From NCBI GenBank assembly GCA_965224495.1, contig CBDCZI010000025.1, positions 243,495-307,494 of the forward strand: a stretch of 64,000 nt of DNA, in the 5' to 3' direction. The position numbers were made by a program, and so were the translations under genes. Each line of letters begins with the position of its first letter. Positions within the stretch are counted from its first letter, which is position 1. This document shows, piece by piece, positions 12,401 through 64,000 of this stretch. The notes beneath the pieces are model-generated. The model searched no databases and was not told the DNA's origin. It was given only the letters and a program-made list of their open reading frames with translations. The stretch is from Cytophagales bacterium. GTDB taxonomy: Bacteria; Bacteroidota; Bacteroidia; Cytophagales; JAAEPT01.

Positions 12401-12475
12401 TGGGCCCTGTAGGATTCGAACCTACGACCCCTTGCTTGTAAGGCAAATGCTCTAAACCAACTGAGCTAAGGGCCC
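12401..12475 (-). tRNA. tRNA-Val (anticodon TAC)
   Basis: The reverse complement reads GGGCCCTTAGCTCAGTTGGTTTAGAGCATTTGCCTTACAAGCAAGGGGTCGTAGGTTCGAATCCTACAGGGCCCA. It has a 7-bp acceptor stem, a GTTCGAATC T-loop and anticodon loop CTTACAA. CCA is not encoded. Confidence 0.9.
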
Positions 12476-17016: not shown

Positions 17017-17179
17017 TTGGAGCATCCCCTCTGTGATGAAATGATTTTTCGGTGTAGGTTAGTAAAAGAAGCGATAGAAATGAAAATAACCGATAAAAAT
17101 AACGGAGGGTCGGGCTTACGGCTATATCTTTTTAGGGCAGAAAAAGCCCTAAAAAGGATACCGCCTTTATCCCTATGCC
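17017..17179 (+). repeat. Dispersed structured intergenic element, copy A (candidate ncRNA or MITE-like repeat)
   Basis: Shares blocks TTGGAGCATCCCC / GGGTCGGGCTT / ATCTTT..AAAGGAT hairpin / ATCCCTATGCC with copies at 25131-25368(-), 37655-37826(-), 45648-45803(+) and 52881-53041(+). Confidence 0.8.
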
Positions 17180-17371
17180 AAAAGAATACAGTGTGCATTG
17201 TGTTGAGTGCCTAATTTTGTTTGTCGTCTAAGTGTTTCGTGCTATCCAAAACGAGCGAGGGCGATAGTCGAATCCAATAAACAGAACATATTACCCTACC
17301 AAATTCTTTTCTTTTGACTAATAGCACAAAAAAGATACGTCTAAACCATCTATAATAGAAATCCCACGAAC

Positions 17372-31400: not shown

Positions 31401-34400
31401 CACTTAGCAAAAGTAGCAGCAACGCCAACAACACGTTGTGATGATGAAAGCCCATTAGGAAGCATCAGCTTAACTGACTCAGAATACCAAATTGTCGTAA
31501 CAGCAACAGCTGGAGATATGGCTAGTTTGGTAATAACAGGGGCAACGTTCCAAGAAACAGCAGCAGGTTCGGGTATCTGGTATAGTGGAGCAATAGCCGA
31601 AACAGTAACTTCAGCCGTTCATGTAACGGATGTTAATGATTGTGAGGGAGGAATAGACCTTACAGGGATAACAAGAACATGTTCTTGCCAAGCCAAAGGA
31701 GTAACTACCCTGACAACAGGAACAATTTGTGCAGAAGGAAATACAACAATAGAGGTAGTAACCAGTGGGCTAACAGGGAACTATAACGTAACCTTGACCC
31801 AACCAGATGCAACGACACAAGTCGCTTCAAGTAAGCCTACAGGAACAGAAGTGTTTACAGTAAGCCAAGCAGGAGATTATACCGTAGTGGTACAAGATGC
31901 AACAGATGGTTGTGTTGCAAATGGAGGAACGGTAAGACTTGCTCATTACCCCGTACCAACAGCAACAATAGCAGGAGATGCAAGTATTTGTGCAGCAGGA
32001 ACAGTGTCAACAAGTACAGGATTAGCTGTTACATTAACCGCAGGGACAGCACCTTTTGCTATTGATTTATTAGGAGGAACAGCAACGGAAAACTTAACCA
32101 ACCTAACAAGTCCTCATACCCAAGGCGTGAGTACAGCAGGTGTTTATACGTTGACTAATTTAGTAGATGCTAACGGATGCCAAGGAACAATTGCACCAAC
32201 AGAGAAAGCAACAATCACCAACTTTGAGAAGGTGATTGCTTCAGGAAGTGCGGTATGTAATAGCACACCTTCATTAGTATTAGGAGGCGTTACATTATCA
32301 CCTACACAATACCAAGTAGTAGTAGAAGTAACGCAAGGAGATTTGGCTTCAACGGTAGTCACTAAATTAGTGGGGGGAGTGTCATTGACAAGACTTCCTT
32401 TAACAAACAAGTGGTACAGTGGAGCGATAGACGAAACGACAGCCACAGATGTCCACGTAACAGACGGTAACAATTGTGAAGGAGGAATAGATATTACAGG
32501 ACTACAAAACCAATGTTCTTGTCCTATTGCAGCAACAGCTACTTTATTACCAGGGAGTATTTGTGATGATGGAACTTCAACAGCGACCTTAACAGTAAAT
32601 GTAACCAGTAGTAATACGACCGATATGACAGATTACACGATAGCGGTAACAGGAGCAGAAACGGTTGGTTCGACAGAAACGCCAGATGCTTCAGGAGCAG
32701 TGGTAAATAAAACTTACAATGTAAATACAAACGGAGCTTATGCCATTAAGGTAACAAGTAACGGACAAAATGGAGCTTGTGTTGTATCAGCAGGAGGGCA
32801 AAACTTAACGGTAAATGCTTTACCAACAGCAAGTATCACAACAACAGGTACAGCGTTGGAATACTGTCAAGGAGAAACACCAATAACCTTAACGGCAACA
32901 CAAGTGATTGGAGCAACAAGTTACGAATGGTTCAAAGGTGGAGTTACACAAGGAACAACCTTAACCAACAGCAAAACAAATGCAACAGCAGATGCAGCAT
33001 GGACGGTGAAAGTAACCGACGCAAATGGTTGTGATCAAACGTCAAATCCAGTAGCGGTAATAGAAAATGCTTTACCAATAGCAAGTATAACGACAACAGG
33101 AACAGCATTGGCGTACTGTAAAGACGGAGCAGGAGTTGTATTAAGAGCGACAAACGTACCAAATGCAACTACCTACGAATGGTTCAAAGAAACAACTTCA
33201 GTAACAATAGGAGCAGGAGATACAAAGACAGGAGCGTTAGCAGGAAGTTGGACAGTAAAAGTAATTGATGATAACACTTGTACAGCAACTTCAACGGCAG
33301 TAAGCGTTATTGAAAACCCATTACCAACACCAAGTATTACGACAAGTGGAACGGACTTAGCATACTGTAAAAATGCAACAGGAGTAACACTAGCAGCAAC
33401 AGGCGGAGTAGATTACGCATGGATAAAAGACAACGGAACACCAACAGCTTACTCGACAACAGCCACAACAAGTGATGCGAAGTTTGGTAACTGGCAAGTA
33501 AAAGTAAAAGACGCTAAAGGGTGTGAAGCAACTTCATTAGCAGTAACCGTAACAGAAAACACCCTACCAACGGCTACCTTGACAAGCGCAACAAACCCTG
33601 TGATTTATTGTGCAGGAACAAGCGCACCAATAATTACGGTGGCGATTACAGGAAATGGACCATTTACTTATGACTATACAGGAGGGGCAAACGGAACAGG
33701 GCAAAGTACAGGAACAATAACAACAAGTAACACGGACAACGCAGCGACCACTTACCAACTCACGAAGGTAACAGATGCTAACAACTGTGAAGGGACAAGC
33801 TTTGGAGCAAGTGTTGTGGTGACACAAGAAGAAGTGCCAGGCGTACCAACACTGAGATCGGACGCAGAAACAACGGTATGTGAAGCAACTGTATTTAATA
33901 TTACAGCAACTTCGGTAGCAGTAGGAACGCCAACGATTATTTGGGAACAAGGAGGGACAGGAACAGAAGCGAGCCCATCGATTGTAGTAGGTAATACGGC
34001 AGGAAGCGTAACGATTTACCAAGCCAAAGCAAAAATTGGAAACTGTCCATCGGAAAGTTCTTTACCCTTAGTAGTTACAGTAAAAGAAAGTGCAACAGTA
34101 AGTTTAACGGTAAATAAAACAACAGTTTGTGAGGAAGAAAAGGTGGTATTTACAGCCTCATCAACCCACGCGGACCCAGGGGTAACTTACGACTGGTATT
34201 TGAATATAGAGGTCGCAGGGATAAACACAGAGATAAAGACAGTGACAACGATAAACCCAACTTATGAAGTGAAATTAACAGACAGTGACGTTTTATACAG
34301 TGTGAAGATAGCCAACAACAGTTCTTGTGTAGGAGCAGAGGTAAGTTCTAATTTACAAGCGGTAGCAGTAACGAAGTTACCAAAACCAACATTGAATAGC

Positions 34401-35162
34401 TTAAGTGAGAGCTTATGTGGTACAGATGGAGGTTTTGACTTGGTGGCAAGGGATGAAAACGGAGTGATTTATACGAGTGGAATAGATTGGCGCGATGGAA
34501 ATGACGATAAATTATTAGAAACAAGTGGGAGCTACCATGTAACTAAAACAGGGACTTACGCAGTGTATGTCACTAAAAACGGATGTCGTTCAAAAATACA
34601 CTCAGGAAGAACGGTAGCACAAGTGGTTGTTCAGGAATTGAGTTTAGACTTTAGTCCATCAGAGACCCAAGACATCGAAGAAGATGAAGAGGTGGTGTTA
34701 GAGGCAATTGTAGGAGGAGGAATAGGCGTATTAGAATACGCTTGGACTCGAACAGAGACAGGGAATGTGACCGGTAGTTCATCAAGTTATGTTTACCCAG
34801 CAAGCAAGACAGAAAACGTATCGGTAGTGGTAACTGATACGCAGACCAACTGTACGGTAAGTAGTGGGGTGACGGAGATAAATGTATTGAAATCATTTAA
34901 AGTACCCAATGCGTTTACACCAAACGGAGATGGATTTAATGATACGTGGAACATTGAAGGGTTAGAAACTTATAGAAACTCGGTGATGAATGTTTATAAC
35001 CGTTGGGGACAATTGGTTTACAGTAACCACGGGTCATACACAGAGGCATGGGACGGAAGAAGAAATGGTAAAGACTTACCTATCGGAACGTACTATTATG
35101 TGATTACCCTAAACCAAGACGGCAAAGAAAACGTGAGTGGTGATGTAACTATCGTGAGGTAA
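25491..35162 (+). CDS. Giant repeat-rich cell-surface protein with T9SS type-B C-terminal sorting domain (SprB-like adhesin class)
   Basis: 3223 aa with a signal peptide. Dozens of Thr/Ala/Gly-rich Ig-like modules carry conserved Cys pairs. The last about 88 aa match the gliding-motility-associated CTD ([15 protein letters not shown]...YNRWGQLVY...WDGR...[10 protein letters not shown]). Confidence 0.9.
29476..32815 (+). repeat. Four tandem macro-repeats of about 275 aa (822-834 nt) inside the giant gene
   Basis: A CSC(P/Q) landmark recurs at 30024, 30858, 31680 and 32514. Each unit has three sub-domains (..ASIC..PF.., [27 protein letters not shown], and ..TVTY.GG..Y..L...G.Y.V....C..NGG...LAH). 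Confidence 0.85.
34896..35159 (+). other. T9SS type-B C-terminal sorting domain of the giant protein
   Basis: [72 protein letters not shown]. Confidence 0.9.
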
Positions 35163-37557: not shown

Positions 37558-37654
37558 GATATACGAACTCTAGTATATTACCCTCGTTGTAAACGAGTGC
37601 TAGAAGGTTTACACACAGACGATAGAAAGTCAATTAAGAACTAATAAACGCGTG

Positions 37655-37826
37655 AGGGATAGAGACGGCATCCTTTTTGGGCTTTTTCTGCCCGAAAAGA
37701 TACAGTCGAAAGCCCGACCCGAGGGGTGCTATGAAATAGTGTTTTTATGGTGCTGAACTCTTTGCTATGAAAAGCAGTAAAACAAAACAAAAGAGGGGTA
37801 CGTCCAAATCTACACGTTATTTAAAA
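37655..37826 (-). repeat. Dispersed structured element, copy D (divergent)
   Basis: The minus-sense sequence reads TTTGGACGTACCCCTC...GGGTCGGGCTTTCGAC..ATCTTTTCGGGC-AGAAAAA-GCCCAAAAAGGAT..CTCTATCCCTCACGC. The long-range helix is not preserved. Confidence 0.6.
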
Positions 37827-44013: not shown

Positions 44014-44607
44014 TTAAGCGGTTTTTAAAACCATATCAATACAAATCACTGAAGCCAAAATCAACCTTCTTCTATCGTCATCAGGAGCTACACTTTCATC
44101 GATAGAAAGCATGTAATTATCAGCCGTAGTAAAGAGTTCTTTACCCAATCCAGCCCATTTTTTAGTTACAGATGCTAATTCTTTTTGGTCATCATCTAAA
44201 AATTTAAAATCCCAACCCGTCCATTTTCCTTTCAAAGCGAAAGCTTTTTTGTTGTCAATATCAAAGATATCAAACTTACTCTTTATAGGAGAAAATCGTT
44301 GTTTAAACGTACCAATAACCTCCTCTGAGTCATTAAACACACTTACAGTTGATAAGAAAAAAGATGATTTTTTATTCAAACGTATGATTTGTTTGCCATC
44401 CAATGTCTTGATGATTACATTAAAAGGAGTCATGCTTTTGTACTTAGAAAAACGCAACATTTTAGTCCAAAAACTCAATTTGTCCTCACGACAATGTAAA
44501 ATCTCCTCTTTGGTATCAGGACAAAGAATATCGTAATTGTTTGCCGCTTTAAACATACCTACATGTTCTTTTACAAAGAAATGGTTTCTATTCAATATTT
44601 CACTCAT
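44014..44607 (-). CDS. Scramblase/LURP1-like (tubby-C-like fold) protein
   Basis: 197 aa. Pattern of beta strands ending in a hydrophobic C-terminal helix (LILASVICIDMVL), as in the phospholipid scramblase/DUF567 families. Confidence 0.55.
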   Translation of the reverse strand: MSEILNRNHFFVKEHVGMFKAANNYDILCPDTKEEILHCREDKLSFWTKMLRFSKYKSMTPFNVIIKTLDGKQIIRLNKKSSFFLSTVSVFNDSEEVIGTFKQRFSPIKSKFDIFDIDNKKAFALKGKWTGWDFKFLDDDQKELASVTKKWAGLGKELFTTADNYMLSIDESVAPDDDRRRLILASVICIDMVLKTA

Positions 44608-45860: not shown

Positions 45861-47105
45861 TTAATGCGTGTGTTCCGTTTCTTCTTTGGTCATTTCTGCT
45901 AATAAATAATAAGCAGAGCTTGTTGCAAATACCGTTTCTTTAGCCATTTTTTTAAGAAATTTTATTTCCACAAAGCCCTTCTCTTTTTGCCCAAGAATCA
46001 CCTCTGTTTTAGTGAAAGTTGATTTACGTTGTTCTTCGTGACCATGACCATGATGGTGGTCATCGTGTGCGTGCGTACCGTGGTTGCTAACCTGCTTTTT
46101 AACAAACACATACGTACGGTTTTTATCAGTTACAACAGCCTCTTCAGGCAATACTGTTGTACTGTCTGTCTGTCCGACCACGATTTTTCCTTTCACGTAC
46201 ATCCCCGAGAGCAAATGCATTTTTTCAGCGTGAATATGTGCGTGGATATGTACAGCACGAGGATTGTTTTCAAAAGCAGGGCTAATAGCAAACACTTCTC
46301 CTTCCATTTTTTTGCCATTATTACTCACCTCAAAAATAATTTTTTGTCCGACTTTCACCTTAGCAATGTCCTTTTCGTAAACCTTTAAAGCGACGTGCAA
46401 ATCATCGTTATTTACCACCTCAAACAACTTGTTTTGTGGCTGAACAAACGCACCAATATTTGTTTGTACCAAACTCACCACGCCTTTTATAGGAGATTTA
46501 ATATAAATAGACGGATAGATTTTACCTTGTTCTACTCTACTCGGACTCAAGCCTAACATACGCAATTTTGCTTTTAGCCCTTCGACATTTGCTAACGTTG
46601 CACGGTAATTGGCAGTTACTTTTTGTAGATTCTTACCCGAACCCACTTTTTCTTTGTAAAGTATTTCTTGGCGTTTTTTCTCTTTTTGCAAATAAATCAA
46701 TTCATTCAAATGGCTCAAATAATCTTGTTGCATTTGTACAATTTCGGGATGCTCCAAATGTGCTAATATTTGCCCTTTCGCAACCTTAGAACCTTCAATG
46801 ACACGTACTTTTTTTATCACTCCACCAACCAAAGACGAAACGTCTGCTTTGTCGTTGGGAGGCAATTCAAGTTCTCCATTAGCATAAACAAATGTGGCTA
46901 AAGGTTTACGTAAAATGAGACCTGTTTTTAGCTTGATTAGTTTTTGTTGTTGGATAGTCAAAACAACTTCCGTTGTACTGTGTTCTGCATGTTCATCGTG
47001 TCCATGTTCATTATGACCGTGTCCCTCGTGTCCTGTTTCTTGTTTTTTTCCGCAAGAGATTGCCAACAAGAGGATACACAAATAAATAATGTTTCTATTT
47101 TTCAT
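45861..47105 (-). CDS. RND efflux periplasmic adaptor (CzcB/CusB-like) with His-rich tracts
   Basis: Lipoprotein-like signal (LLLAISC) and a membrane-fusion-protein fold. His-rich segments GHEGHGHNEHGHDEHAEH and HGTHAHDDHHHGHGHEE. Confidence 0.85.
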   Translation of the reverse strand: MKNRNIIYLCILLLAISCGKKQETGHEGHGHNEHGHDEHAEHSTTEVVLTIQQQKLIKLKTGLILRKPLATFVYANGELELPPNDKADVSSLVGGVIKKVRVIEGSKVAKGQILAHLEHPEIVQMQQDYLSHLNELIYLQKEKKRQEILYKEKVGSGKNLQKVTANYRATLANVEGLKAKLRMLGLSPSRVEQGKIYPSIYIKSPIKGVVSLVQTNIGAFVQPQNKLFEVVNNDDLHVALKVYEKDIAKVKVGQKIIFEVSNNGKKMEGEVFAISPAFENNPRAVHIHAHIHAEKMHLLSGMYVKGKIVVGQTDSTTVLPEEAVVTDKNRTYVFVKKQVSNHGTHAHDDHHHGHGHEEQRKSTFTKTEVILGQKEKGFVEIKFLKKMAKETVFATSSAYYLLAEMTKEETEHTH

Positions 47106-47129: not shown

Positions 47130-50100
47130 CTATTTTCCTAACAAATAATCTATCTCAACCACCGATTGGTTGTATTGATTAAGTGTTTTTAAATAATTAA
47201 ATTTTATAGCCAATGCTACGTCGATACTTTGCACGTATTCAATGTAATTAATCGCCTCGTAAGCGAAACTCTTTTGTGCATTACCTAAGATTAAATTAGC
47301 TTGAGAAATACCTTTTGTTTCGTAATAAGCAATACCTAATTTCAATTTGTGGTGCGTTTGAATCAGGTGTTTGTATTTGCCCAATAACTGTGTTTTGTAA
47401 TAATTAGCCTGTGTTTCAGCTTTCATTTTGTCTAAGCCCGATGCCTTTACTTTTGCCGAATTTCCTTTAAACCAAATAGGAATAGCGACACCAAATTGTA
47501 CACCTTGAAACCTTTTTTTTCCTTCAAAATAAGTCGGTGTATTGTCCACATCTTGCCAGCCGACCATTGATTGATTAAAATAACCGACACGGAAATCGGG
47601 TAAATTACTAGCCTTTAATACCGCTTTTTTTTGCTCTGCCAATGTTGATTGATGCATATAATAACTCAATAAAGGATTTGAGGAGATGGCATTTGTATCA
47701 AGAACAAAAACACGTTTTTGAAGCTTTTCGTGTGTCGCATCAACCAAATAATCGACATTTAACAAGGTCTTTAATTGCGTTTGATAAATAGAAATATCGG
47801 CTAGGTTTTGTTCCTTTTCCATTTCGATTTGCATCACCTGAGCTTCGGCATTTACAAACTCTAAATAGCTTGTTTCCTCGGTTTCGTAACGGATTTTTGT
47901 AGCGTGGGCAAACTGTTGGTAAATACTATCTTGAAAAATCAACAACTGCTGACGTTGGTGTAAATAAGCCAAATGCAACCAAACGGCTTTCACTTCTTTT
48001 TTAAGTTCGTTGCCCGTAATCGCCTTTTGCAATTCGCTAGTTACAATTTGCCCTTTTGCTAATTGTACTTGCTTCTTATAAAGAGAAGGAAATTGAAATT
48101 TCTGGTTAATTTCAAAACCAAAATCATTGTTGATACTATTTATTTGTCCGTAATTAAAATCAAAATTGGTCTTTTTAATAGAGATAGCCGATGATTTTAA
48201 GGTTTTCTGTCTTTCAATTTCCAAATCAGCTAATTGCATACTGCCGTTTTTAGACAAAGCAATTTCAACAGCCTTCTCTATTGGTAAAAGGGTCGTTTGT
48301 GCTTTAATAGGTGCGGTAAACACACAGAAAACCACCAAGAGAGCAAGTAGGTGAGGTGAAAGTTTTATTTTATTCATCGTTTTATTTTCTATCATAGCAT
48401 ACAACACAGGCAAGACCACCAAAGTTAATAAAGAAGAAGTTAAAAGACCACCAATAACCACGGTAGCTAAAGGACGTTGTACTTCTGCACCAGCCGAAAC
48501 TGATATAGCCATTGGTAAAAAACCTAAAACATCGGTGGTGGCCGTCAAAAATATTGGTCGGATACGTTCTTTAGCACCTTTCAAAATCCGTTCTTTTAAG
48601 GTCATATTTTCTCCTTGTGTCGTTTTCAAATCATTAAAACTTGCGATTAAAACCAAGCCATTGAGTACAGCAACACCAAACAACACAATAAAACCAACAC
48701 CTGCCGAAATACTAAACGGCATACCCATCACCCACAACGAAAACACACCACCAACCGCAGAAAGAGGGATGGCAATGTAAATAATCATTGTTTGCCAAAA
48801 AGATTTGAGGGCAAGGTAAAGCAAAACAAAAATCAAAAACAACACCAAGGGTACAACGATTAATAAACGGTCTTTTGCTCTTTGCAAATTTTCAAATGTA
48901 CCGCCATATTTAATGTAATAACCCGTTGGTAAATCAAGTTCTGCATCTATTTTTGTTTGTACTTCTTCCACAAAAGACTGTATATCTCGCCCTCGGACAT
49001 TTACACCGACATAAATTCGTCGGTTGGTGTTTTCACGAGAGACTTGCATCAAACCAGGTTGAAAATCTATTTTTGCTACTTCTCGCAAAGGAATATGCGA
49101 GCCATCAGCCAAAGGAATGAAGATATTTTCTAAATCTGTAATGCCTTTACGGTGTGTTTCTTTTAAGCGAATAACCAAGTCAAACCGTTTTTCGCCTTCA
49201 AAAACGACACCTGCGGTCTCTCCAGCAAACGCCATTTTGATGATACTATTAAGTTCTTCAATAGACAGACCATATTGTGCCATTCGGTCACGCTGAAAAC
49301 GCACAGACATTTGCGGTAACCCTTGTGTTGCTTCTACCTTCAAATCGCCAACTCCTTCGACTGTTTGCACGATAGAAGCGATTTGTTGTGATTTTTCGGT
49401 CAATATAGCTAAACTTTCGCCATACAATTTGATAGCCACATCTTGGCGAACACCTGTCAGTAATTCATTAAATCGCATTTGAACAGGTTGTGTAAATTCA
49501 AAATTTATACCAGGTAAAACAGCCAACTCTTTTTTGAATTTTTTGACTAACTCTTCTTTTGAAGAAGCAGAAACCCACTCTTTTTTAGGTTTCAGTAAAA
49601 CAAACATATCCGCAACATCCATCGGCATCGGGTCGATAGGTATTTCAGAAACACCGATACGAGCAACCACTTCTTTCACCTCGGGAAACTTAGCTAACAA
49701 TATTTCTTCTATGTAATTGGTCGATTGTATCGCTTCATCGAGCGAACTACCAGGTTTTAATAAAGCGTGTAAAGCAAGGTCTCCTTCATCAAGATTGGGC
49801 ATAAACTCACCACCCATTCTGCTAAATAGGAAAATAGCTACCGCCATAAAAGCAACTGAAAGTCCTAAAACTAACTTTGTTTTTGTCAATACCCACGACA
49901 ATAATTTCACGTAGTTGTTCTCTAACCAAACAATAAAACGGTCGCCGAAAGTTAATTTTTTCTTTGCTTTTTTATTCATAAACAAAGCCGAAACCATAGG
50001 TACGTAAGTCAAGCACAAAATCATTGCACCCATTACCGCAAAACTAAAAGTCATCGCCATTGGTTTAAACATTTTACCTTCAACACCCGTCAAAGTCAAA

Positions 50101-51479
50101 ATGGGGAGAAACACAATCAGAATAATTAATTGACCAAAAAAGGCGGAATTCATCATCTTACTCGATGAATTGTAGGTGATATTGTCTAATTCGTCATTGG
50201 TCAACGGTTGCTCTTTTTGGCGAACAAACTGCATTGTGTAAAAAGCGACACTCTCGACTATTATCACTGCTCCATCGACAATAATACCGAAATCTATCGC
50301 TCCCAAACTCATTAGGTTTGACCAAACGCCAAACAAATTCATCATAATATAAGCAAACAATAAAGACAAGGGAATGGTAGAAGCAACGATAAGCCCTCCT
50401 CTAAAATTACCCAAAAACAAAACCAAAACAAGCACGACAATCAAACCTCCTTCCAAAAGGTTAGTCGAAACAGTAGAAGTAGTACGGTCAATTAAATCTG
50501 AACGGTCAAGGAAAGGTTCGATAGAGATACCCTTAGGCAACGATTTCTCGATTTCCACGACTCTCTTTTTAATTAAATCAATCACTTCATTAGAGTTTGC
50601 ACCCTTCAGCATCAATACCATTCCACCGACGGCTTCACCTTTACCATCTTTGGTAAATGCCCCATAACGAATGGCTTTCCCAAAAGAAACACGAGCAATA
50701 TCACGCACCAAAATCGGTGTTTTATTCACCGTTTTCACGACTATTTGCTCAATATCACCCAACGAATGAATCAGCCCTTCGCCACGAATAAAGTTTGCTT
50801 GATGATTTTTAACAATATAAGCACCTCCTGTATTTCCGTTGTTTTGCTCTAAAGCAGAAAACACATCCGAGATTGTTATTCCCATACTTTTTAAATGATT
50901 GGGGTCGATAGCGACTTCATATTGTTTAATATTACCACCAAAACTATTGACCTCTATCACGCCCTGCACCATTGCCATTTGACGTTTCACTATCCAATCT
51001 TGGTGCGTACGTAACTCGGTCAAACTGTAATTATAGCCTTCAGCCACTTTCAAACTGTATTGGTAAACTTCGCCCAAACCAGTCGCTATTGGCCCCATAA
51101 ATGGTTTGCCAAACTGCTTTGGTATATTGATTTCGTTGAGCTTTTCGGCGATTAATTGACGAGGTAAAAACGTGCCTTTATCGTCTTCAAAAACAATAGT
51201 AACCACCGATAACCCAAAGCGAGAAATCGAACGGATTTCTGTGACACCAGGTAAATTAGCCATCGCCAATTCGACAGGGTAAGTAACAAACTGTTCAATA
51301 TCCTCCGTTCCCAAATTGGGAGAAGTGGTAATCACTTGTACCTGATTGTTGGTAATGTCAGGCACGGCATCAACAGGAACTTTATTCATCGAATAAATCC
51401 CAAAAGCAATCCAAACAAGCAAGAGCAAACCAATGAGTAACTTGTTCTTAATAGAAAAAGAAATAATTTTATTTATCAT
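47130..51479 (-). CDS. CzcA/CusA-family heavy-metal RND pump fused in frame to a TolC/CzcC-like outer-membrane factor
   Basis: The first about 1034 codons are a 12-TM HME-RND protein (MINKIISFSIKNK...). With no stop codon they continue into MNKIKLSPHLLALLVVFCVFTAPIKAQ plus about 390 aa of TolC-like repeats. The ATG at 51479 is preferred over the track TTG at 51491. Confidence 0.85.
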   Translation of the reverse strand: MINKIISFSIKNKLLIGLLLLVWIAFGIYSMNKVPVDAVPDITNNQVQVITTSPNLGTEDIEQFVTYPVELAMANLPGVTEIRSISRFGLSVVTIVFEDDKGTFLPRQLIAEKLNEINIPKQFGKPFMGPIATGLGEVYQYSLKVAEGYNYSLTELRTHQDWIVKRQMAMVQGVIEVNSFGGNIKQYEVAIDPNHLKSMGITISDVFSALEQNNGNTGGAYIVKNHQANFIRGEGLIHSLGDIEQIVVKTVNKTPILVRDIARVSFGKAIRYGAFTKDGKGEAVGGMVLMLKGANSNEVIDLIKKRVVEIEKSLPKGISIEPFLDRSDLIDRTTSTVSTNLLEGGLIVVLVLVLFLGNFRGGLIVASTIPLSLLFAYIMMNLFGVWSNLMSLGAIDFGIIVDGAVIIVESVAFYTMQFVRQKEQPLTNDELDNITYNSSSKMMNSAFFGQLIILIVFLPILTLTGVEGKMFKPMAMTFSFAVMGAMILCLTYVPMVSALFMNKKAKKKLTFGDRFIVWLENNYVKLLSWVLTKTKLVLGLSVAFMAVAIFLFSRMGGEFMPNLDEGDLALHALLKPGSSLDEAIQSTNYIEEILLAKFPEVKEVVARIGVSEIPIDPMPMDVADMFVLLKPKKEWVSASSKEELVKKFKKELAVLPGINFEFTQPVQMRFNELLTGVRQDVAIKLYGESLAILTEKSQQIASIVQTVEGVGDLKVEATQGLPQMSVRFQRDRMAQYGLSIEELNSIIKMAFAGETAGVVFEGEKRFDLVIRLKETHRKGITDLENIFIPLADGSHIPLREVAKIDFQPGLMQVSRENTNRRIYVGVNVRGRDIQSFVEEVQTKIDAELDLPTGYYIKYGGTFENLQRAKDRLLIVVPLVLFLIFVLLYLALKSFWQTMIIYIAIPLSAVGGVFSLWVMGMPFSISAGVGFIVLFGVAVLNGLVLIASFNDLKTTQGENMTLKERILKGAKERIRPIFLTATTDVLGFLPMAISVSAGAEVQRPLATVVIGGLLTSSLLTLVVLPVLYAMIENKTMNKIKLSPHLLALLVVFCVFTAPIKAQTTLLPIEKAVEIALSKNGSMQLADLEIERQKTLKSSAISIKKTNFDFNYGQINSINNDFGFEINQKFQFPSLYKKQVQLAKGQIVTSELQKAITGNELKKEVKAVWLHLAYLHQRQQLLIFQDSIYQQFAHATKIRYETEETSYLEFVNAEAQVMQIEMEKEQNLADISIYQTQLKTLLNVDYLVDATHEKLQKRVFVLDTNAISSNPLLSYYMHQSTLAEQKKAVLKASNLPDFRVGYFNQSMVGWQDVDNTPTYFEGKKRFQGVQFGVAIPIWFKGNSAKVKASGLDKMKAETQANYYKTQLLGKYKHLIQTHHKLKLGIAYYETKGISQANLILGNAQKSFAYEAINYIEYVQSIDVALAIKFNYLKTLNQYNQSVVEIDYLLGK

Positions 51480-51542
51480 ACAAAAAGACAATAAGAAATG
51501 TGCGGTAACAACACGTTACCGATAAAATAAGCCAACGAAAAA

Positions 51543-51851
51543 CTATCCTATTTTAGGAGGTTGATCTATTTTATTACTAAAAAGTGTCGTGTACAAATCT
51601 AAATAAACAACCACTTGTGGTTGGAAAACGACAGCTAACTCACGGCTAAAAAAAGTAATGTCTAATTGAAAAACTACATTTGTACTGCAACAATCACAAG
51701 TACAAAAAGGCGAACAATGGTCTTCGTGTTCCGACGAATCGTGGTCGTGATTTTCAGAAAGTTCGTGCGTATGTCCGCTTTCATTATCAGCACAAGGAAT
51801 GGCATTTAATGACAAAATAACAACAGACAATAAGATAGCGAACCACTTCAT
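51543..51851 (-). CDS. Small secreted Cys/His-rich protein at the head of the czc-like operon
   Basis: 102 aa with a signal peptide. Contains HTHELSENHDHDSSEHEDHCSPFCTCDCC. Resembles the small DUF found upstream of Bacteroidota metal-efflux operons, recalled from memory. Confidence 0.55.
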   Translation of the reverse strand: MKWFAILLSVVILSLNAIPCADNESGHTHELSENHDHDSSEHEDHCSPFCTCDCCSTNVVFQLDITFFSRELAVVFQPQVVVYLDLYTTLFSNKIDQPPKIG

Positions 51852-53074: not shown

Positions 53075-54826
53075 TTACTTTTCAAACATAGTGTTAGCTA
53101 AAGTCAGCATAAAAATACCATCTCCCATAATTGTAACGGTCGTTTCAGCGGTCATGTAATCGTGGGCGTCGTCGTAATAAACTGCCGAATAGGTGTTGAA
53201 TTCGTCTTCCCATCTTGGCTGATAAGTAAAGCCTAACTCTTTGTGAGAAACGAGGTCGCCTGGACCAGGCGATATCTCTCCAATAGGGTAGAGGTTTTGT
53301 TGGAGTTTGTAAATCTGCATATAACTGTTTTTCAGGGGTTTTTTAAGTTTTTTTGAGCCTATAAAACTCACTCCCCAATTGTTTAGCCCAAAAGAATAAT
53401 TAACAACATTTAAGAAAATTGATTTGTAAAATGTCTTTTTCTGTTGGTGGGTTCTTATCCCCGCATTGTTGGCGACAATAAGCATAGAACCCATTGTTCC
53501 CCAAGTCAATTGGTGCGGTTGATTGAAAATATTGGTGCGCTTATCCATTTCAGCATCAAAAACATTAAGGTCTTCAATGAGGTTTATCGGTTGGGTTTTA
53601 TTAATCGCCCACATACGGTTGTGTACCATCATATTGCACGTACCCCAAGCCGCCCACCAGCCTGTACCTGCTGCAGTCGAATAAGTGATAGCATCTTTTT
53701 TGTAACTTTCTTTTTTTGTTAAAAGATATAACTCTTCAGCAGCTAATGCCATGTTATCGTTTTCTGTATCGTCGGCATAAAACTGTTCCCCACCTGTTCC
53801 GCCAGTGTTTGGGGCATCTAAAGGGAGGTTGTCGTAATCTGGTTCTTGCTCATTTCCTTTCCACCAAGCAGGGCTTTCTTTACTATTTTTGGCAACTTGG
53901 TAGATAGCGATAGCTTTTTCTTTGTATTGTTTTGCTAACTCTTTTTGCCCAATTTTATTAAAAACATTAGCTCCTAAAGCTAAGGCAGCGGCAGTATATC
54001 CCATTTGTGTTTTTGATAAAGCTGAATATGCCTCTCTACGTCCGTTTAAAATGTCATTTTCGGGTAATCGGTCACCGATTTGGTGGTCTAAATAACCACC
54101 TACTTGAATGATGAAAACGTCATTTTTAGGCATCGTTTGTAATAAATAGTCTAATCCAAATTTCGCTTCATCTAAAATATCCACCAACTCGCTTGTCGAA
54201 TATTTTTTCTTAAATAACTCTGGGTTTAGCTCGTAACTTCTTAGTAATAAGTAGGTCGTATAAGCATTTGTTAAGGTAAATTTGATATAGTCACCTGCGT
54301 CATACCACCCTCCCTGCATGTTTACAGGAGTGATAGAGGTGTTTAGCCCCCAATTGTTGTTTTGACTGTTTGTTCTCGTATAAACTTTGCAACTACTGTC
54401 ACCTTTATGAGCAGGTCTGTGGTCTAAAACGTCATCTGTACCGCTTCTACGTACTTTCATATAACGCAACATATCACTTATGTAGGGTTGGTAAGGTTGG
54501 TCAGCGATAGTAAATGTGATTTGTTCACCGTTAATTGAAAAGGTGTAAATGCCTTTGGTTTTGAGTTTGTTGAATTTTATTTCGTAGTTGTATTTTTTGG
54601 AAGTGTAACCTGTTATTCCAGTTGTTGCTTTTTTCAGCGTACCAAATAAAACCAAACTGTCGTTTGTTGCTATTTTCCATTCTTTTGTAGCTAAGTTTTC
54701 ATCCGAAATAACCACAATACGTTTGTTTTGAGAAGTAATATAACCCGCTTGATTGTAGCGAATATAGGTTTTGCCAAAACTAAGTACGCTAGTAAAAGTA
54801 AAAAGAAGGGATAATAGATATTTCAT
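53075..54826 (-). CDS. Glycoside hydrolase family 9 (endoglucanase-like) with N-terminal Ig-like domain
   Basis: Signal peptide, GH9 signature [12 protein letters not shown], and an (alpha/alpha)6 catalytic-domain length. Confidence 0.8.
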
Positions 54827-59080: not shown

Positions 59081-60124
59081 ATGAAATTAAAAAATAGTCT
59101 TTTTATCGTTTTTTTGAGTTTGTTGAGTAGTGTCTCACTTGCTCAGCAAGACCCTCATTTTAGCCATTTTATGTTTAACTCGGTGTATTACAACCCAGGT
59201 TATACAGCTATTGAAGGAGTGAGTCGTGCAACATTAATTCATCGCTCACAATGGCTGGGGTACAAATCTTCAAATGAAGCAGACGGAAGAGGTGCGCCAA
59301 CGACACAGGGATTGACGGTGACCTATCCAATAAAGATGTTTGGTTCTACTGTCTTTAATAGTGGGGCGGGTTTGTCTATTGTAAATGATAAATTAGGGCC
59401 TTTGAGAAATTTTGAATTGAAAGGGTCTTTCGCTTATAATGTAAAACTTTCTACGGGAGGTATTTTAGGTGGAGGTTTAGGTGTAGGTTTTTGGCGTCAA
59501 AGTATAGATGGTTCGCTATTGAGAGCAGCAGATGATGATGATGTAGTTGTTGACGGGTTAGTCGGTCAAAAAAACGCACAGTTAAAACCAGATTTATCGT
59601 TAGGTGTTTGGTATAAGACAAAAAAATATGAAGGCGGTGTTTCTGTGCGTCATGCGATACCTAGCCGTTACAGTTATGGAATTGATAAAGACTCTATCTC
59701 ATCTAAGCTAATGCAACATTTATATATAACGGGACGTTATAATATCTATACTGGTTCTGATTTGCTCATATCACCAACAGCTATGATTTATACAGACTTC
59801 TCTGGTTTGTCGATTAATTATGGCGTATTGACTTCTTATCGAGACATGAAATATTGGGCAGGATTGACTCTACGTCAGTCAACAGCTAAGAAAGCGGGGG
59901 ATAGTAAGAACACAGTAAGTAATAATGATGTAGTTATTTTGATAGGAGCATCATTTTTGAAACAAAAAGAATTAAGAGTAGGGTATTCGTTGGATATTGT
60001 TACAAGTGGTGTGAAAGCCAAAAGAGGAACTTCGCATGAGATATTACTTTCTTATGTGTTACCTATAGGTAAAGACGATGAGAAACCGCCGTTGCGTTCT
60101 CCTCGTTACCGTCATGAAAATTAA
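59081..60124 (+). CDS. porP: T9SS membrane protein PorP/SprF family
   Basis: Signal peptide followed by QQDPHFSHFMFNSVYYNPGYT, the family hallmark, and a beta-barrel-like remainder. The ATG at 59081 is preferred over the track start at 59072. Confidence 0.85.
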   Translation: MKLKNSLFIVFLSLLSSVSLAQQDPHFSHFMFNSVYYNPGYTAIEGVSRATLIHRSQWLGYKSSNEADGRGAPTTQGLTVTYPIKMFGSTVFNSGAGLSIVNDKLGPLRNFELKGSFAYNVKLSTGGILGGGLGVGFWRQSIDGSLLRAADDDDVVVDGLVGQKNAQLKPDLSLGVWYKTKKYEGGVSVRHAIPSRYSYGIDKDSISSKLMQHLYITGRYNIYTGSDLLISPTAMIYTDFSGLSINYGVLTSYRDMKYWAGLTLRQSTAKKAGDSKNTVSNNDVVILIGASFLKQKELRVGYSLDIVTSGVKAKRGTSHEILLSYVLPIGKDDEKPPLRSPRYRHEN

Positions 60125-60381
60125 TTTTAGAGGAGAAAAGTTTGTCTATTGGGTTTGAGGATTGAAAATAGAGGAGATAGACAGCCTTTTAGAAAATAAA
60201 TTTTATATAAAGTTTTGTGAATACCAATTATTATTCGCATCTTGTAGTCTATTCTGAAATCGAATCTATTAAAAAGTTGTCTTTTGGATCGGATAACGTG
60301 GTCTTTTTTAGAGTAGTATTTAGTAAGAAAGAGTTCTCTTTCTCTTAATATTTGAGTTGTCATAAGGAAAAATTTAGTGTT

Positions 60382-61409
60382 ATGAATAGTATTAGTTTGA
60401 TTAAAAAGGCCTTTTGGCACTAGCTTTGGGTGCGACTGCATTCTTGACTAGTTGTGGAGGAGGTTACGAAGGTGGGGGTGACCTTGTAGGTGTGCCTGAC
60501 CGTGAAGGATGGGGACAAACATTGCCTTTTGGTATGGTTGTGTGTCCTTCTGGAACATTTCATATGGGGCAGGCGGATGAAAACGTACCTTCGTCTCAAA
60601 CAAACCCTAACCGTCAGATAACGATTGGTGGGTTTTACATGGATGATACGGAAATCACAAATAATGAGTACCGTCAATTCGTTAACGCTATTTTAGAAGA
60701 TTCTTTAGAAGTGTTAGGTGAGGAGTATATTATGACTGAACTTTATCCTGATACTACTGTTTGGGTTAGAGATTTTACGCACCACATGGGAGATCCTATG
60801 ATGGAGTACTATTATATGCACCCTGCGTTTGATGAATATCCAGTGGTTGGTGTAGATTGGTTTGCTGCAAAATATTTTTGTGAGTGGAGAACGGATTACA
60901 TGAATGAATGGAGAGCTGAAAACGGATTGTTTGCTATGCCTAGATTTAGACTTCCTTCGGAAGCTGAGTGGGAATATGCAGCAAGAGGTGGTCGTGATAT
61001 GGCTAAATACCCATGGGGTAATCCTTATATTAGAAATGCAAAAGGTTGTATGTTAGCTAACTTTAAGCCAGGACGTGGTAACTATTATGATGATGGTTTC
61101 ATGTACACTGCGCCAGTAGCTTCTTACTTTTCAAATGATTACGGTCTTTATGATATGGCGGGAAATGTGGCCGAATGGTGTGAAGATGCTTTTGAGGAAG
61201 CAGCAGTGCCTAAGGTTTGGGATTTGAATCCTACATACTATAAAGATGATGAGCCAAGAAAATTAATCAGAGGTGGTTCTTGGAAAGATATCGCTTACTA
61301 CTTGGAAACAGGTACAAGAACTTACGAATACCAAGATACAACGAAGTCGTTTGTAGGTTTCAGAAGTGTAATGATTTATTTAGGTCGTTCGTCAGGATAC
61401 GAATTCTAA
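60382..61409 (+). CDS. gldK: Gliding-motility/T9SS lipoprotein GldK (PorK), FGE-sulfatase fold; signal peptide split by an apparent 1-nt indel
   Basis: The FGE-like core (RLPSEAEWEYAARGG...YDMAGNVAEWC...RGGSW) follows the lipobox LTSCGG. The ATG at 60382 encodes MNSISLIKKAF, then runs into a stop. The main frame is open only from TTG 60414. Confidence 0.85.
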
Positions 61410-61462
61410 AATGTTTGTTTAGTAAATTTTAATAATTAGTATAACTTTTAAATTTAATTAAT

Positions 61463-62266
61463 ATGTCGAAAGAAGGAGGATTTAAGGAAAAATTCTATGG
61501 GGATATAGCTCCAGTTATTACAGGTCTAGGTGCCGCAGTAGTTATTTTGGGTGCGTTGTTTAAAATTCAGCATTACCCAGGAGCAAGTTTAATGCTTATC
61601 GTGGGGCTTGGTACTGAAGCAGCATTGTTTGTAATGTTTGCATTTGCGCCAAAAGAGCCACATTACGATTGGGAAAAAGTTTATCCTCAATTAGCTGAAG
61701 AGTATGATTCTTACGATGATGAAGGAGGTCTTGCTATTGCAGATAACTCAAACGTTGTAGCTAAATTAGGAGATATGATGGCTGACTCAGGAATTAACGA
61801 AGATGTAATGTCTAAATTAGGAACTAGTTTTGCTTCTTTAAATGATACGGTTAGTCAAATTGGTGATTTATCAAGTGCAGCTTCTGCTTCATCTGATTAC
61901 GCTAACAAGGCAACTGAGGCGTCTAAGCAATTAGAAGCGGTAGGTGTTGCTTACAAAACAACTGCTGAAGCAATGTCAGGAATGGCTAATGCTGCAACTG
62001 ATGCTAAAGCATACCATACAGAAGTTCAAAATATTACAAAGAATTTAGGTTCTTTAAATGCTGTTTACGAAATGGAGTTACAAGATGCTAACAACCATAT
62101 CAAAGCGATGAACAAATTTTACGGTAACCTATCATCTGCAATGGAAAACATGACAGATGCAAGTAAAGATACTGAGAAAATGAAGACAGAGATTAGTAAA
62201 TTAACTACTAACTTGACTCAAATGAACTCAGTTTACGGTAACATGTTATCTGCAATGAAAGGGTAA
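61463..62266 (+). CDS. gldL: Gliding-motility/T9SS motor protein GldL (PorL)
   Basis: The two N-terminal TM helices carry the conserved GAAVVILGALFKIQH...GLGTEAALF. The cytoplasmic tail is helical. Confidence 0.9.
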   Translation: MSKEGGFKEKFYGDIAPVITGLGAAVVILGALFKIQHYPGASLMLIVGLGTEAALFVMFAFAPKEPHYDWEKVYPQLAEEYDSYDDEGGLAIADNSNVVAKLGDMMADSGINEDVMSKLGTSFASLNDTVSQIGDLSSAASASSDYANKATEASKQLEAVGVAYKTTAEAMSGMANAATDAKAYHTEVQNITKNLGSLNAVYEMELQDANNHIKAMNKFYGNLSSAMENMTDASKDTEKMKTEISKLTTNLTQMNSVYGNMLSAMKG

Positions 62267-62318
62267 TCCTTACATTGAAAATTAAATTATTGTTTTTAAA
62301 AATATAAACTATTGATAT

Positions 62319-64000
62319 ATGGCAGGTGGAAAAGAAACCCCACGTCAGAAAATGGTTGGGTTAATGTACTTGGTACTTCTTGCTCTTTTGGCTCTTCAAG
62401 TAGGGTCGGAGATAATGGTGAAGTTTCAACAACTAAACGACTCAATGCAATTTCTGGTAAAAGAATCTCAAGGTAAGTCACAAGGGATTTTGGCAAACAT
62501 TGGGGCAAAAGTAAAAGAAAGGGGTAGCAGACCAAAAGAGGTAAAAGCCCTTAATCAAGCAAATGCTTTGAATGCGCAAACAACGGCATTGATTTCTAAA
62601 ATTCAGAGCTATAAAGATGAGTTAATTGAATTGACTGGTGGCTATAACCTTGATGATGCGGGTGAAAAAATTAGTTACAAGGGGATGAAAGATTCAGACA
62701 ATACATCAATGTTGATGGTTGGTATTGGTGATGATCATCACCAATATAAGGACGCTAAGCAAAAAACTACCGACGGTAAAGGTTATGCTTGGTCTCTTCA
62801 AAAGGATTTGAATACTTTTATGGGGGTATTAAACAAAGCTTATGTAGATGTTGATATCGCTACAGGAGGAAAAGGTACTGATAAAGTTCACTTTGGCGAT
62901 AAATTAGCATTGAATGGTGATGAAGATCCCTTGTTTATGAAAACAGAGAACAAGAAAAAAACTTGGCCTATGTTGAACTTTGATCACACACCTATGATTG
63001 CTTCTTTGGCTTTCTTAACAGAAAAAACAGTCTAAGTTAGCTCAATTTGAAGGGGAGATTTTAGCTAAACTGAAAGGTGTAGTTGGAGCAGCTGATTTTA
63101 AAGTTGAAAAGTTAGATGTAATGGCTAATGCTGACGCAAGTACTGTGGCAGCAGGAACAAAGTACAAAGCGAGGATCTTTTTAACTGCCGATTTTGGTGA
63201 TAAAATGAAACCTGAAATTTCAGTTGGAGGTAGAAAATTAGCAGTTGTAGGAGGTGCAGCGGAGTATTCTTTTACTGCTAATACTGCGGGAGCTAAACCA
63301 AATAAAAATGGGTTGTATGTAAAAAGTTACACGGCTAAGATTGAAGTTCCAGATCCTTTAACTGGGAAAATGAAACCTCACATAAAGAAAGTTGAATATT
63401 TCGTTTCTAAACCAGTAATTCAGGTGATTAACGGAGGTAAACCAAAATTGTATAAAGATTGTGGTAACTTCTTGGAAATTAACGTACCTGCTTTAGGCGC
63501 TTTGTATTCTCCTTCTTTTAATGTGTCAGGAGCATCTTTGATTAAAGGGAAAGGAAAAGGATCGATTGTTGTAGTGCCAACAAAAGCATCTGTGGCACTT
63601 ACTGTAAATAGTGGAGGGAACAGAATTGGAGTAGAGCATTTTCAAGTAGTGTTAGTGCCTAAGCCTTCTATTGTTGCTACTTCTAGAGGTAGAGCAATTA
63701 ACCCAAAAGGGGTGAAAGCACCAGGTCCACGTAGTATCAAAATGGTTGCTAAAGCAGAACCTGGTTTCGCTAAAGCATTACCTAAAGATTCTAAGTATAG
63801 TGTAAGGGGATGGACAGCTACATTGGTAAGAGGAAAAAGACCAATGGGGACAAAGAAGTTCTCTAAACCAGATGGTAACTTGAGTTCTTTTGCTGCAAAA
63901 GCAAAAAATGGGGATCGTATTATGATTGAAGTTAAAAAGGTGTACAGAAGAACTTATACAGGTAAAAATGTAGCGGTTAGGATACCAATGACAATCATTA
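62319..64000 (+). CDS. gldM: Gliding-motility/T9SS protein GldM (PorM), interrupted by a frameshift; continues past the window end
   Basis: N-terminus MAGGKETPRQKMVGLMYLVLLALLAL is the GldM hallmark. Frame 1 stops at 63033-63035. The +1 frame is open from 63019 to 64000 and encodes the remaining GldM periplasmic domains (hand-translated, no stops). Confidence 0.85.

Follow-up and report, generated by a model that had tools for sequence, protein, structure and literature searches.

Tripartite efflux pumps are portrayed as assemblies of three proteins made separately, and it is still debated how the outer-membrane channel finds its inner-membrane pump and is matched to it. The closest described relatives of the system analysed here are CzcCBA, ZneCAB and CusCFBA of Cupriavidus metallidurans and Escherichia coli. 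Within the phylum Bacteroidota, Bacteroides thetaiotaomicron carries the unfused czc operons BT2038-40, BT0678-80 and BT4693-95, each encoding a CusA/CzcA protein, an adaptor and a TolC family protein (PMC10434189). Here we analysed a stretch of 64,000 nucleotides from a Cytophagales bacterium (assembly GCA_965224495.1, contig CBDCZI010000025.1, positions 243,495 to 307,494 of the forward strand), which we call the window, and in which a heavy-metal-type pump of the resistance-nodulation-division (RND) superfamily and an outer-membrane factor (OMF) are encoded by one unbroken gene. The comparisons of homologous sequences reported below indicate that this gene is a genuine, evolutionarily conserved fusion, and they point to a protein that is made as one chain and cut between its two parts.

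A pump and an outer-membrane factor in one reading frame

The fused gene lies on the minus strand at 47130..51479 and consists of a single open reading frame (ORF) of 1449 codons plus a stop, with an RND pump, a signal-peptide-like internal segment and an OMF in succession. The ORF as first listed (47130..51491) comprised 1453 amino acids (aa) counted from a TTG codon; alignment of the homologues, whose consensus begins MINxIISFSIKNK, moved the start to the ATG at 51479 and gave a protein of 1449 aa. The translation across the junction, LPVLYAMIENKT-MNKIKLSPHLLALLVVFCVFTAPIKAQ (longer stretch: LTLVVLPVLYAMIENKTMNKIKLSPHLLALLVVFCVFTAPIKAQTTLLPIEKAVEIALSKNG), is free of stops. The initial annotation had described one continuous frame joining a CzcA-like pump to a TolC-like part, and both statements were borne out, the former by the 1449 codons on the minus strand and the stop-free junction with its in-frame ATG at 48377-48375, and the latter by matches to the ACR_tran, TIGR00914 and OEP models.

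The pump half, of CzcA/ZneA-like heavy-metal type, spans aa 1-1029 (48393..51479, minus strand) and runs through the twelfth transmembrane helix (TM12). Pfam ACR_tran aligned with aa 5-1030 over model positions 1-1020 of 1021 (900.8 bits), and NCBIfam TIGR00914 (CusA/CzcA) aligned with aa 1-1036 at 1156 bits against a cutoff of 701 bits. The best solved relative was ZneA (4k0e; E 3e-209, 700 bits, aa 1-1033), followed by CusA (E 1e-173, 583 bits), whereas the multidrug pumps MdtB, MexK and AcrB scored far lower (~180-236 bits). The TM4 motif of the pump reads DFGIIVDGAVIIVES. Compared to the charged motif DFG-x3-DGA-x3-VEN of Nies' classification, the elements DFG, DGA and VE are present and Ser stands in place of the final Asn; a subgroup assignment on this motif would be tentative. 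By the family models and the solved relatives, the pump half is a complete heavy-metal efflux RND pump of the CusA/CzcA family.

The OMF half comprises 389 aa (aa 1061-1449; 47133..48299, minus strand) as the predicted mature protein. It matched Pfam OEP in two stretches starting at aa 1068 (63.5 bits against a 22-bit cutoff), and a phmmer search returned no sequence-level match for it in the PDB. We built an AlphaFold2 model of aa 996-1449 on an alignment of 23 sequences. The mean predicted local distance difference test (pLDDT) score was 82.2, with values of 85-97 in most 10-residue blocks of the OMF and of about 50 at the junction. The modelled OMF begins with a short N-terminal strand and two short helices, followed by two barrel strands and by long helices of ~69 and ~36 residues. 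The unit of two strands and two long helices is predicted to occur twice, giving four barrel strands and four long helices. In the same model, the first structured element of the OMF starts 2-5 residues past Q1061, and ~29 helical residues then lead up to the first barrel strand. The top matches of a Foldseek search against the PDB were all outer-membrane factors, namely SilC, CmeC, CusC, TolC, OprM/N/J, VceC and MtrE, with E values from 3.5e-16 to ~1e-13, TM-scores of 0.65-0.70 and ~410 aligned columns. Judged by the model, the OMF half is a complete TolC-fold protomer.

To assess conservation of the fusion, we compared the protein against 5.8 billion protein clusters, of which the best 120 are considered here (the identical protein and 119 others). 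The fusion was full-length in all 120, with lengths of 1427-1476 aa and 98-100% query coverage, and the 119 other clusters were 58-66% identical to the window protein. A scan of GTDB r232 with a single genome for each species returned 598 related stretches, and the locus counts given below refer to the best 80, each of which was re-translated. The frame was uninterrupted in 78 of these 80 loci (1438-1500 aa). One of the two exceptions was ended by a contig edge, and the other, locus L057, encodes a pump without an OMF domain. Orthologues are hence not uniformly two genes, as the stop-free junction in 120 of the 120 clusters and 78 of the 80 loci demonstrates. Hundreds of independent assemblies, complete genomes and isolates included, carry this unbroken frame, down to 47% identity.

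All of the best 80 loci belong to Bacteroidota except one metagenome-assembled genome (MAG) labelled Chlorobiota (L065). The carriers among Flavobacteriales include Owenweeksia, Crocinitomicaceae, Cryomorphaceae and many Flavobacteriaceae (Zobellia, Maribacter, Tenacibaculum, Aquimarina, Flavobacterium); those among Cytophagales include Cyclobacteriaceae, Marivirga and Rapidithrix; Chitinophagales are also represented, and carriers of Bacteroidales type include Prolixibacteraceae, Marinilabilia and Maribellus. Among the carriers that can be cultivated are Zobellia uliginosa, Tenacibaculum lutimaris, Maribacter ulvicola, Marivirga lumbricoides, Reichenbachiella faecimaris and Flavobacterium calami. 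The junction of the Chlorobiota-labelled locus reads ...KKSYT/QEKE (here and below, a slash marks the position of the presumed cut), and its label could reflect horizontal transfer or a problem of binning or labelling. The pump-only locus L057 (3654-8054), from an uncultured Bacteroidaceae MAG, encodes a pump of 1043 aa that is 56% identical to the window pump and stops after TM12, with the adaptor directly next. Its 8-kb contig holds no OMF, and the locus represents an unfused or OMF-less variant of the operon.

The junction and the stand-alone channels

Between the pump and the OMF lies a linker of 31 residues (aa 1030-1060) with the shape of a signal peptide. Its basic n-region, IENKTMNKIKLSPH (aa 1030-1043; 48351..48392, minus strand), would lie on the cytoplasmic side. 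The hydrophobic h-region, LLALLVVFCVF (aa 1044-1054; 48318..48350, minus strand), forms the signal-peptide core and a putative thirteenth transmembrane helix. The c-region, TAPIKA (aa 1055-1060; 48300..48317, minus strand), places Pro at -4, Ile at -3 and Ala at -1, and it is followed by the predicted signal peptidase I site between A1060 and Q1061 (48297..48302, minus strand). If read from the in-frame ATG of Met1035 (48375..48377, minus strand), the junction parses as a textbook signal peptide, with an n-region MNKIKLSPH at 1035-1043, the h-region, the c-region and Gln1061 at +1.

In Bacteroidetes, most substrates of signal peptidase I expose an N-terminal Gln, which is known as the Q-rule (PMC5837995, PMC10653852). 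The organism studied here follows this rule, since 7 of the 8 signals of the signal peptidase I type encoded in the window end in A, S or G followed by Gln, for example ...FSVFS/QKKK, ...TIIFA/QSDK and ...SVSLA/QQDP. The N-termini examined include those at 152, 2692, 19190, 25491, 37846 (minus strand), 57111 and 59081, and the exception is a glycoside hydrolase family 9 (GH9) cellulase at 53075-54826 (minus strand) with ...SFG/KTY.

We aligned the junctions of the 120 fused clusters and then added those of the loci, giving 198 sequences. TM12 was almost invariant. Between E1031 and Q1061 not a single column was invariant, and the length of the linker varied by more than 20 residues, while Q1061 itself was invariant in both curated alignments. 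The pattern of the junction was constant, in that a basic stretch with a median net charge of +3 leads into a hydrophobic core and a short polar end, and a small residue and Gln come last. We scored cleavage sites with a rule that demands one of AGSTCVIL at -3, one of AGS at -1 and Q at +1, at a distance of 8-32 residues past the start of the hydrophobic core. This rule was satisfied by 195 of the 198 junctions, compared to 100 of 1444 (7%) hydrophobic segments located elsewhere, in the pump halves of these proteins. The three junctions that failed read MGA/Q, MNA/Q and YT/Q. Methionine showed no such conservation. It was found anywhere in the linker in 72 of the 198 sequences, against 84.5 expected from composition, and only 2 of the 120 closest clusters, the window protein and P0003, carry it at the position of Met1035. 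A Q-rule signature of signal peptidase I is thus conserved at the junction, and a Met is not.

The signal-like segment occupies aa 1035-1060 of a chain of 1449 aa and lies after 12 transmembrane helices, not at an N-terminus where a signal peptide is expected, and the OMF is not encoded as a precursor of its own that begins with a signal peptide. The aligned sequences nevertheless suggest that the junction can work like a signal peptide, although not like a canonical one. We also considered the lipoprotein route, in which signal peptidase II would release the OMF, and rejected it: no Cys is conserved at or near the site, and C1052 of the window protein lies within the h-region and is unconserved.

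Stand-alone relatives of the OMF provided a second comparison. A search of the OMF half against 1.84 billion cluster representatives returned 2348 relatives, of which the best 150 were classified. Among these, 42 were demonstrably fused, with TM12 upstream, 68 were stand-alone and 40 were fragments. The notion that all matches of ~400 aa are merely fragments of fusions was rejected, as the 68 stand-alone proteins begin with Met and a normal signal peptide. In 63 of the 68, the same (-3,-1)/Q site was present at the homologous position. The closest stand-alone protein among the best 150, P0121 (L081, 1750-3081), is 57% identical to the window OMF and reads ...CPLNA/QQDPLLLTIDKAVAIALDKNG where the window protein reads ...APIKA/QTTLLPIEKAVEIALSKNG. 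It is as close to the window OMF half as the closest fused homologues are, and it lies among unrelated genes, with neither a pump nor an adaptor on its 4-kb contig, which hints at a fission or duplication of the OMF module. In Tannerella forsythia, the "OM Efflux protein" Tanf_07615 was observed with the N-terminal peptide pyroGlu-QEVLTLDQCR after MKQFIFLWMAVILPFCAMA/Q (...FCAMA/Q), as listed in the supplement of the Q-rule paper. This peptide directly documents processing of an OMF of the phylum at a site of this kind.

The stand-alone Bacteroidota OMFs (P0121, P0123, Tanf_07615) and the fused protein have homologous mature parts, which begin at the same Gln and are preceded by an n-h-c signal ending in A/Q. 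They differ in that the stand-alone signal is N-terminal and starts with Met, whereas the fused signal follows 1029 residues of pump. Together, these comparisons indicate that the fused junction is collinear with the precursor of an ordinary OMF that has ceased to need its own start codon. A further difference is that the uncharged stretch of the fused protein is ~5 residues longer, and that after cleavage this segment would stay on the pump.

Predicted processing and competing explanations

We consider it likely that the gene product is a membrane polyprotein that is cut between A1060 and Q1061, freeing the channel and leaving the pump with a thirteenth helix. According to this model, one chain of 1449 residues would leave the ribosome, and the 12-helix pump would be inserted into the inner membrane so that its C-terminus faces the cytoplasm. 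Both termini are cytoplasmic in the structures of AcrB, CusA and ZneA, and a cytoplasmic C-terminus for this pump is suggested by its full-length homology to ZneA and CusA and by the net-positive linker. Given that location, the segment after TM12 would have to cross the membrane from inside to outside, as a signal peptide does, and the A/Q site would come to lie on the periplasmic side, the side on which signal peptidase I is active. The basic linker would thus be kept inside, the hydrophobic segment would enter the Sec translocon in the manner of a signal peptide, and the OMF domain would be carried into the periplasm co-translationally. Cleavage by signal peptidase I between Ala1060 and Gln1061 would then free a TolC-like protomer of 389 residues, whose N-terminal Gln1061 would cyclise to pyroglutamate, a modification found on most proteins that Bacteroidetes export. 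The freed protomer would trimerise and insert into the outer membrane, the pump would retain residues 1030-1060 as a thirteenth, C-terminal helix, and the separately encoded adaptor, the product of the downstream gene, would bridge pump and channel. A consequence of the fusion would be that pump and channel are synthesised at a fixed ratio of 1:1 and that each channel is delivered beside its pump.

With a little more reserve, we also regard the wider statement as probable: that this is a natural RND pump-OMF polyprotein, in which the translocon inserts a Q-rule signal placed behind TM12 and signal peptidase I cuts it while the thirteenth helix is kept, providing 1:1 stoichiometry and co-localised, co-translational export, and that it is widespread in Bacteroidota and absent from the efflux literature searched.

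Several observations weigh against cleavage at the junction. The counts of homologues lack phylogenetic independence, and the site rule is a simple -3/-1/+1 pattern. Experimental evidence of cleavage was not found for any fused member in the searchable literature. The junction of the window protein begins with an ATG in a start-like context, and some OMF could be made separately from it. In addition, the uncharged stretch formed by the h- and c-regions is longer in the fusions (median 21, interquartile range [IQR] 21-24) than in the stand-alone relatives (median 16, IQR 15-18), and longer hydrophobic cores tend toward uncleaved anchors. From the sequences, the ~5 additional residues may reflect a second role of the segment as a retained thirteenth transmembrane helix.

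The last of these observations bears on the idea of a permanent tether, in which the hydrophobic segment is an uncleaved thirteenth transmembrane helix and the OMF stays covalently attached to the pump. A median of 21 uncharged residues is indeed nearer to the length of a transmembrane helix than the 16 of the stand-alone signal peptides. A small residue at -1 and Gln at +1 are, however, nearly universal at the junction, and a helix that stays uncleaved would have no evident use for such a site. The TolC fold is intact, its barrel strands included, and the same mature protein arises in stand-alone relatives from precursors with ordinary cleavable signals. Moreover, the model leaves only 2-5 residues between Q1061 and the first structured element of the OMF. 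By homology with TolC (1EK9), the mature N-terminus would be situated at the equatorial belt, about 45 Å beneath the outer membrane, and in published assemblies of the AcrAB-TolC type this equatorial position is separated from the inner membrane by well over 100 Å. A tether of 2-5 residues would therefore be incompatible with a barrel inserted in the outer membrane, and we regard permanent attachment as very unlikely. It is likewise improbable, if not to the same degree, that translation starts internally at the ATG at 48377 (Met1035) and yields a normal OMF precursor, instead of or beside read-through, the continuous frame being incidental, for example after loss of a stop between adjacent A and C genes. 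The ATG stands exactly where the signal peptide of a stand-alone OMF would begin (MNKIK...), and P0003 shares the Met at this position. Bacteroidetes initiate without a Shine-Dalgarno sequence and prefer A at -3 (PMC6847099), and the context of this ATG is A-rich, with A at -3 and -6. Its score was 4.8 in a matrix built on 33 gene starts of the window and used without cross-validation, compared to a median of 6.5 for the true starts, and 2.5% of 282 internal in-frame ATGs scored as high. We give this score little weight, since coding composition confounds it, a basic linker rich in Lys and Asn being A-rich in a genome of 37% GC whatever its function.

What favours cleavage of a single chain over internal initiation is which of the features has been conserved. 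The fusion and the signal-peptide features have been, while Met is present at the position in only 2 of the 120 close homologues and is not enriched in the linker, a count that applies to ATG starts, since GTG or TTG starts cannot be judged from protein alignments. An internal start is accordingly possible in this organism only and is not the conserved mechanism of the family; as a speculation, Met1035 could be the retained start codon of an OMF gene that once stood alone. An artefact, that is, a sequencing or assembly error or a recent loss of the stop giving a non-functional read-through, has in its favour the prior that errors sometimes merge adjacent genes, and the pump-only locus L057 and the stand-alone OMFs illustrate that both states are natural. 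The presence of the same unbroken frame in hundreds of independent assemblies, with both halves intact, excludes it for practical purposes. The initial annotation had left three explanations side by side. The genuine covalent fusion is now supported by conservation across several orders of Bacteroidota and by signal-peptide features with Gln at +1, the internal start falls as a conserved mechanism on the two Met counts (2 of 120; 72 against 84.5 expected), and the lost stop or sequencing error is refuted by conservation. Cleavage of a single polyprotein at A1060/Q1061 is the reading that we retain.

Neighbouring genes and comparison with known efflux systems

The fused gene is flanked by two genes on the same strand. 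The periplasmic adaptor, a CzcB-like membrane fusion protein (45861..47105, minus strand; Pfam HlyD_D23, TIGR01730), begins 24 nt downstream. Its N-terminus, MKNRNIIYLCILLLAISCGKKQETGHEGHGHNEHGHDEHAEH, contains a lipoprotein-type signal (LLLAISC) immediately followed by a His-rich run, GHEGHGHNEHGHDEHAEH, which suggests an N-terminal metal-binding arm. A small protein of 102 aa rich in Cys, His and Asp, belonging to DUF6660 (Pfam PF20365), is encoded 63 nt upstream (51543..51851, minus strand). Its hydrophobic N-terminus ends ...LNAIPC/AD, and its His/Asp/Cys-rich core reads HTHELSENHDHDSSEHEDHCSPFCTCDCCS. It is probably an accessory component of the efflux system that binds metal, and it may be a lipoprotein. 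In 79 of the 80 loci the next gene downstream is that of the adaptor, and in 34 of 78 a homologous, DUF6660-like ORF with CSPFCxCxCCH comes immediately upstream. Together, these neighbours define DUF6660 - A::C - B as a conserved operon architecture. That the order of the small Cys/His protein, A-C and B departs from czcCBA had already been remarked in the initial annotation, and the order itself proves to be conserved. The ZneA/CzcA-like scores of the pump, the His-rich adaptor and the DUF6660 protein suggest divalent metals as the substrate. When the operon was scanned for sigma-70 promoters, 18 sites were returned, compared to 19.5 in shuffled sequences; Bacteroidota use a different type of promoter.

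Two genes past the adaptor end of the operon, at 44014-44607 (minus strand), the window encodes a protein of 197 aa that matches Pfam Scramblase (70.9 bits), a family discussed mostly in eukaryotes. Elsewhere in the window we observed two copies of the Flavo-1 RNA motif (Rfam RF01705) at 17104-17183 (minus strand) and 37642-37723 (plus strand), with 45-49 bits against a gathering score of 42, and a tRNA at 12401-12475 (minus strand). The regions 59081-64000 and 25491-35162 (both plus strand) hold a type IX secretion and gliding cluster, with PorP/SprF, a GldK-like protein with an FGE-sulfatase domain, GldL and GldM, and in addition an Ig-repeat protein of 3223 aa that carries a CHU_C type IX secretion signal. 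The Flavo-1 motifs, the type IX secretion genes and the taxonomy of the best matches would fit a member of Bacteroidota that is probably Flavobacteriia-like.

A natural RND-OMF or CzcA-CzcC fusion was not described anywhere in the searchable full-text literature, a scope outside which lie most subscription papers and the notes of TCDB and InterPro, so that an earlier mention is possible. The portion covered of the text of a major 2021 review of tripartite pumps likewise mentions no such fusion. Annotation names the gene only as a pump, and the OMF is therefore invisible in gene inventories, which for Bacteroidota count too few OMFs and too few complete efflux systems. A natural fusion conserved among marine and soil Bacteroidota would give a built-in answer to the questions of stoichiometry and co-localisation, and it would offer a tractable natural example of an internal signal peptide that is cleaved from a polytopic bacterial membrane protein. 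The same reading predicts an RND pump with 13 helices, in which the extra helix could affect the packing of the trimer or the binding of partners.

Compared to CzcCBA, ZneCAB and CusCFBA, the system is built from the same three modules, with a ZneA/CusA-like pump, an HlyD_D23/CzcB adaptor and a TolC-fold OMF for which SilC and CusC are among the best structural matches, and it shares with them His-rich metal-binding stretches in its accessory parts. Functionally, its components identify it as a tripartite metal efflux system of the CzcCBA/ZneCAB type. It differs in that pump and channel are one polypeptide joined through an internal signal peptide, as the junction is read here, and in the gene order DUF6660 - A::C - B in place of C-B-A. 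CusC and SilC are lipoproteins, whereas the OMF of the fused system is not, and its sequence is too divergent for a phmmer match in the PDB. The operons of B. thetaiotaomicron, from the same phylum and with the same components, keep three separate genes in the order B-A-C or C-B-A. The arrangement of A followed by C in that species offers a plausible route to a fusion. The processing that we predict has its nearest known parallel in FbcH of Bradyrhizobium japonicum, a precursor of cytochromes b and c1 that Thöny-Meyer and co-workers (about 1989-1991) reportedly found to be cleaved at an internal signal peptide. In both cases, the chain continues from a polytopic inner-membrane protein through an internal signal into a periplasm-facing partner of the same complex, which is said to be released by processing in FbcH and is predicted to be so here. 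The families are unrelated, and the two products of FbcH are said to remain in the inner membrane, whereas the part released from the fused pump would have to reach the outer membrane.

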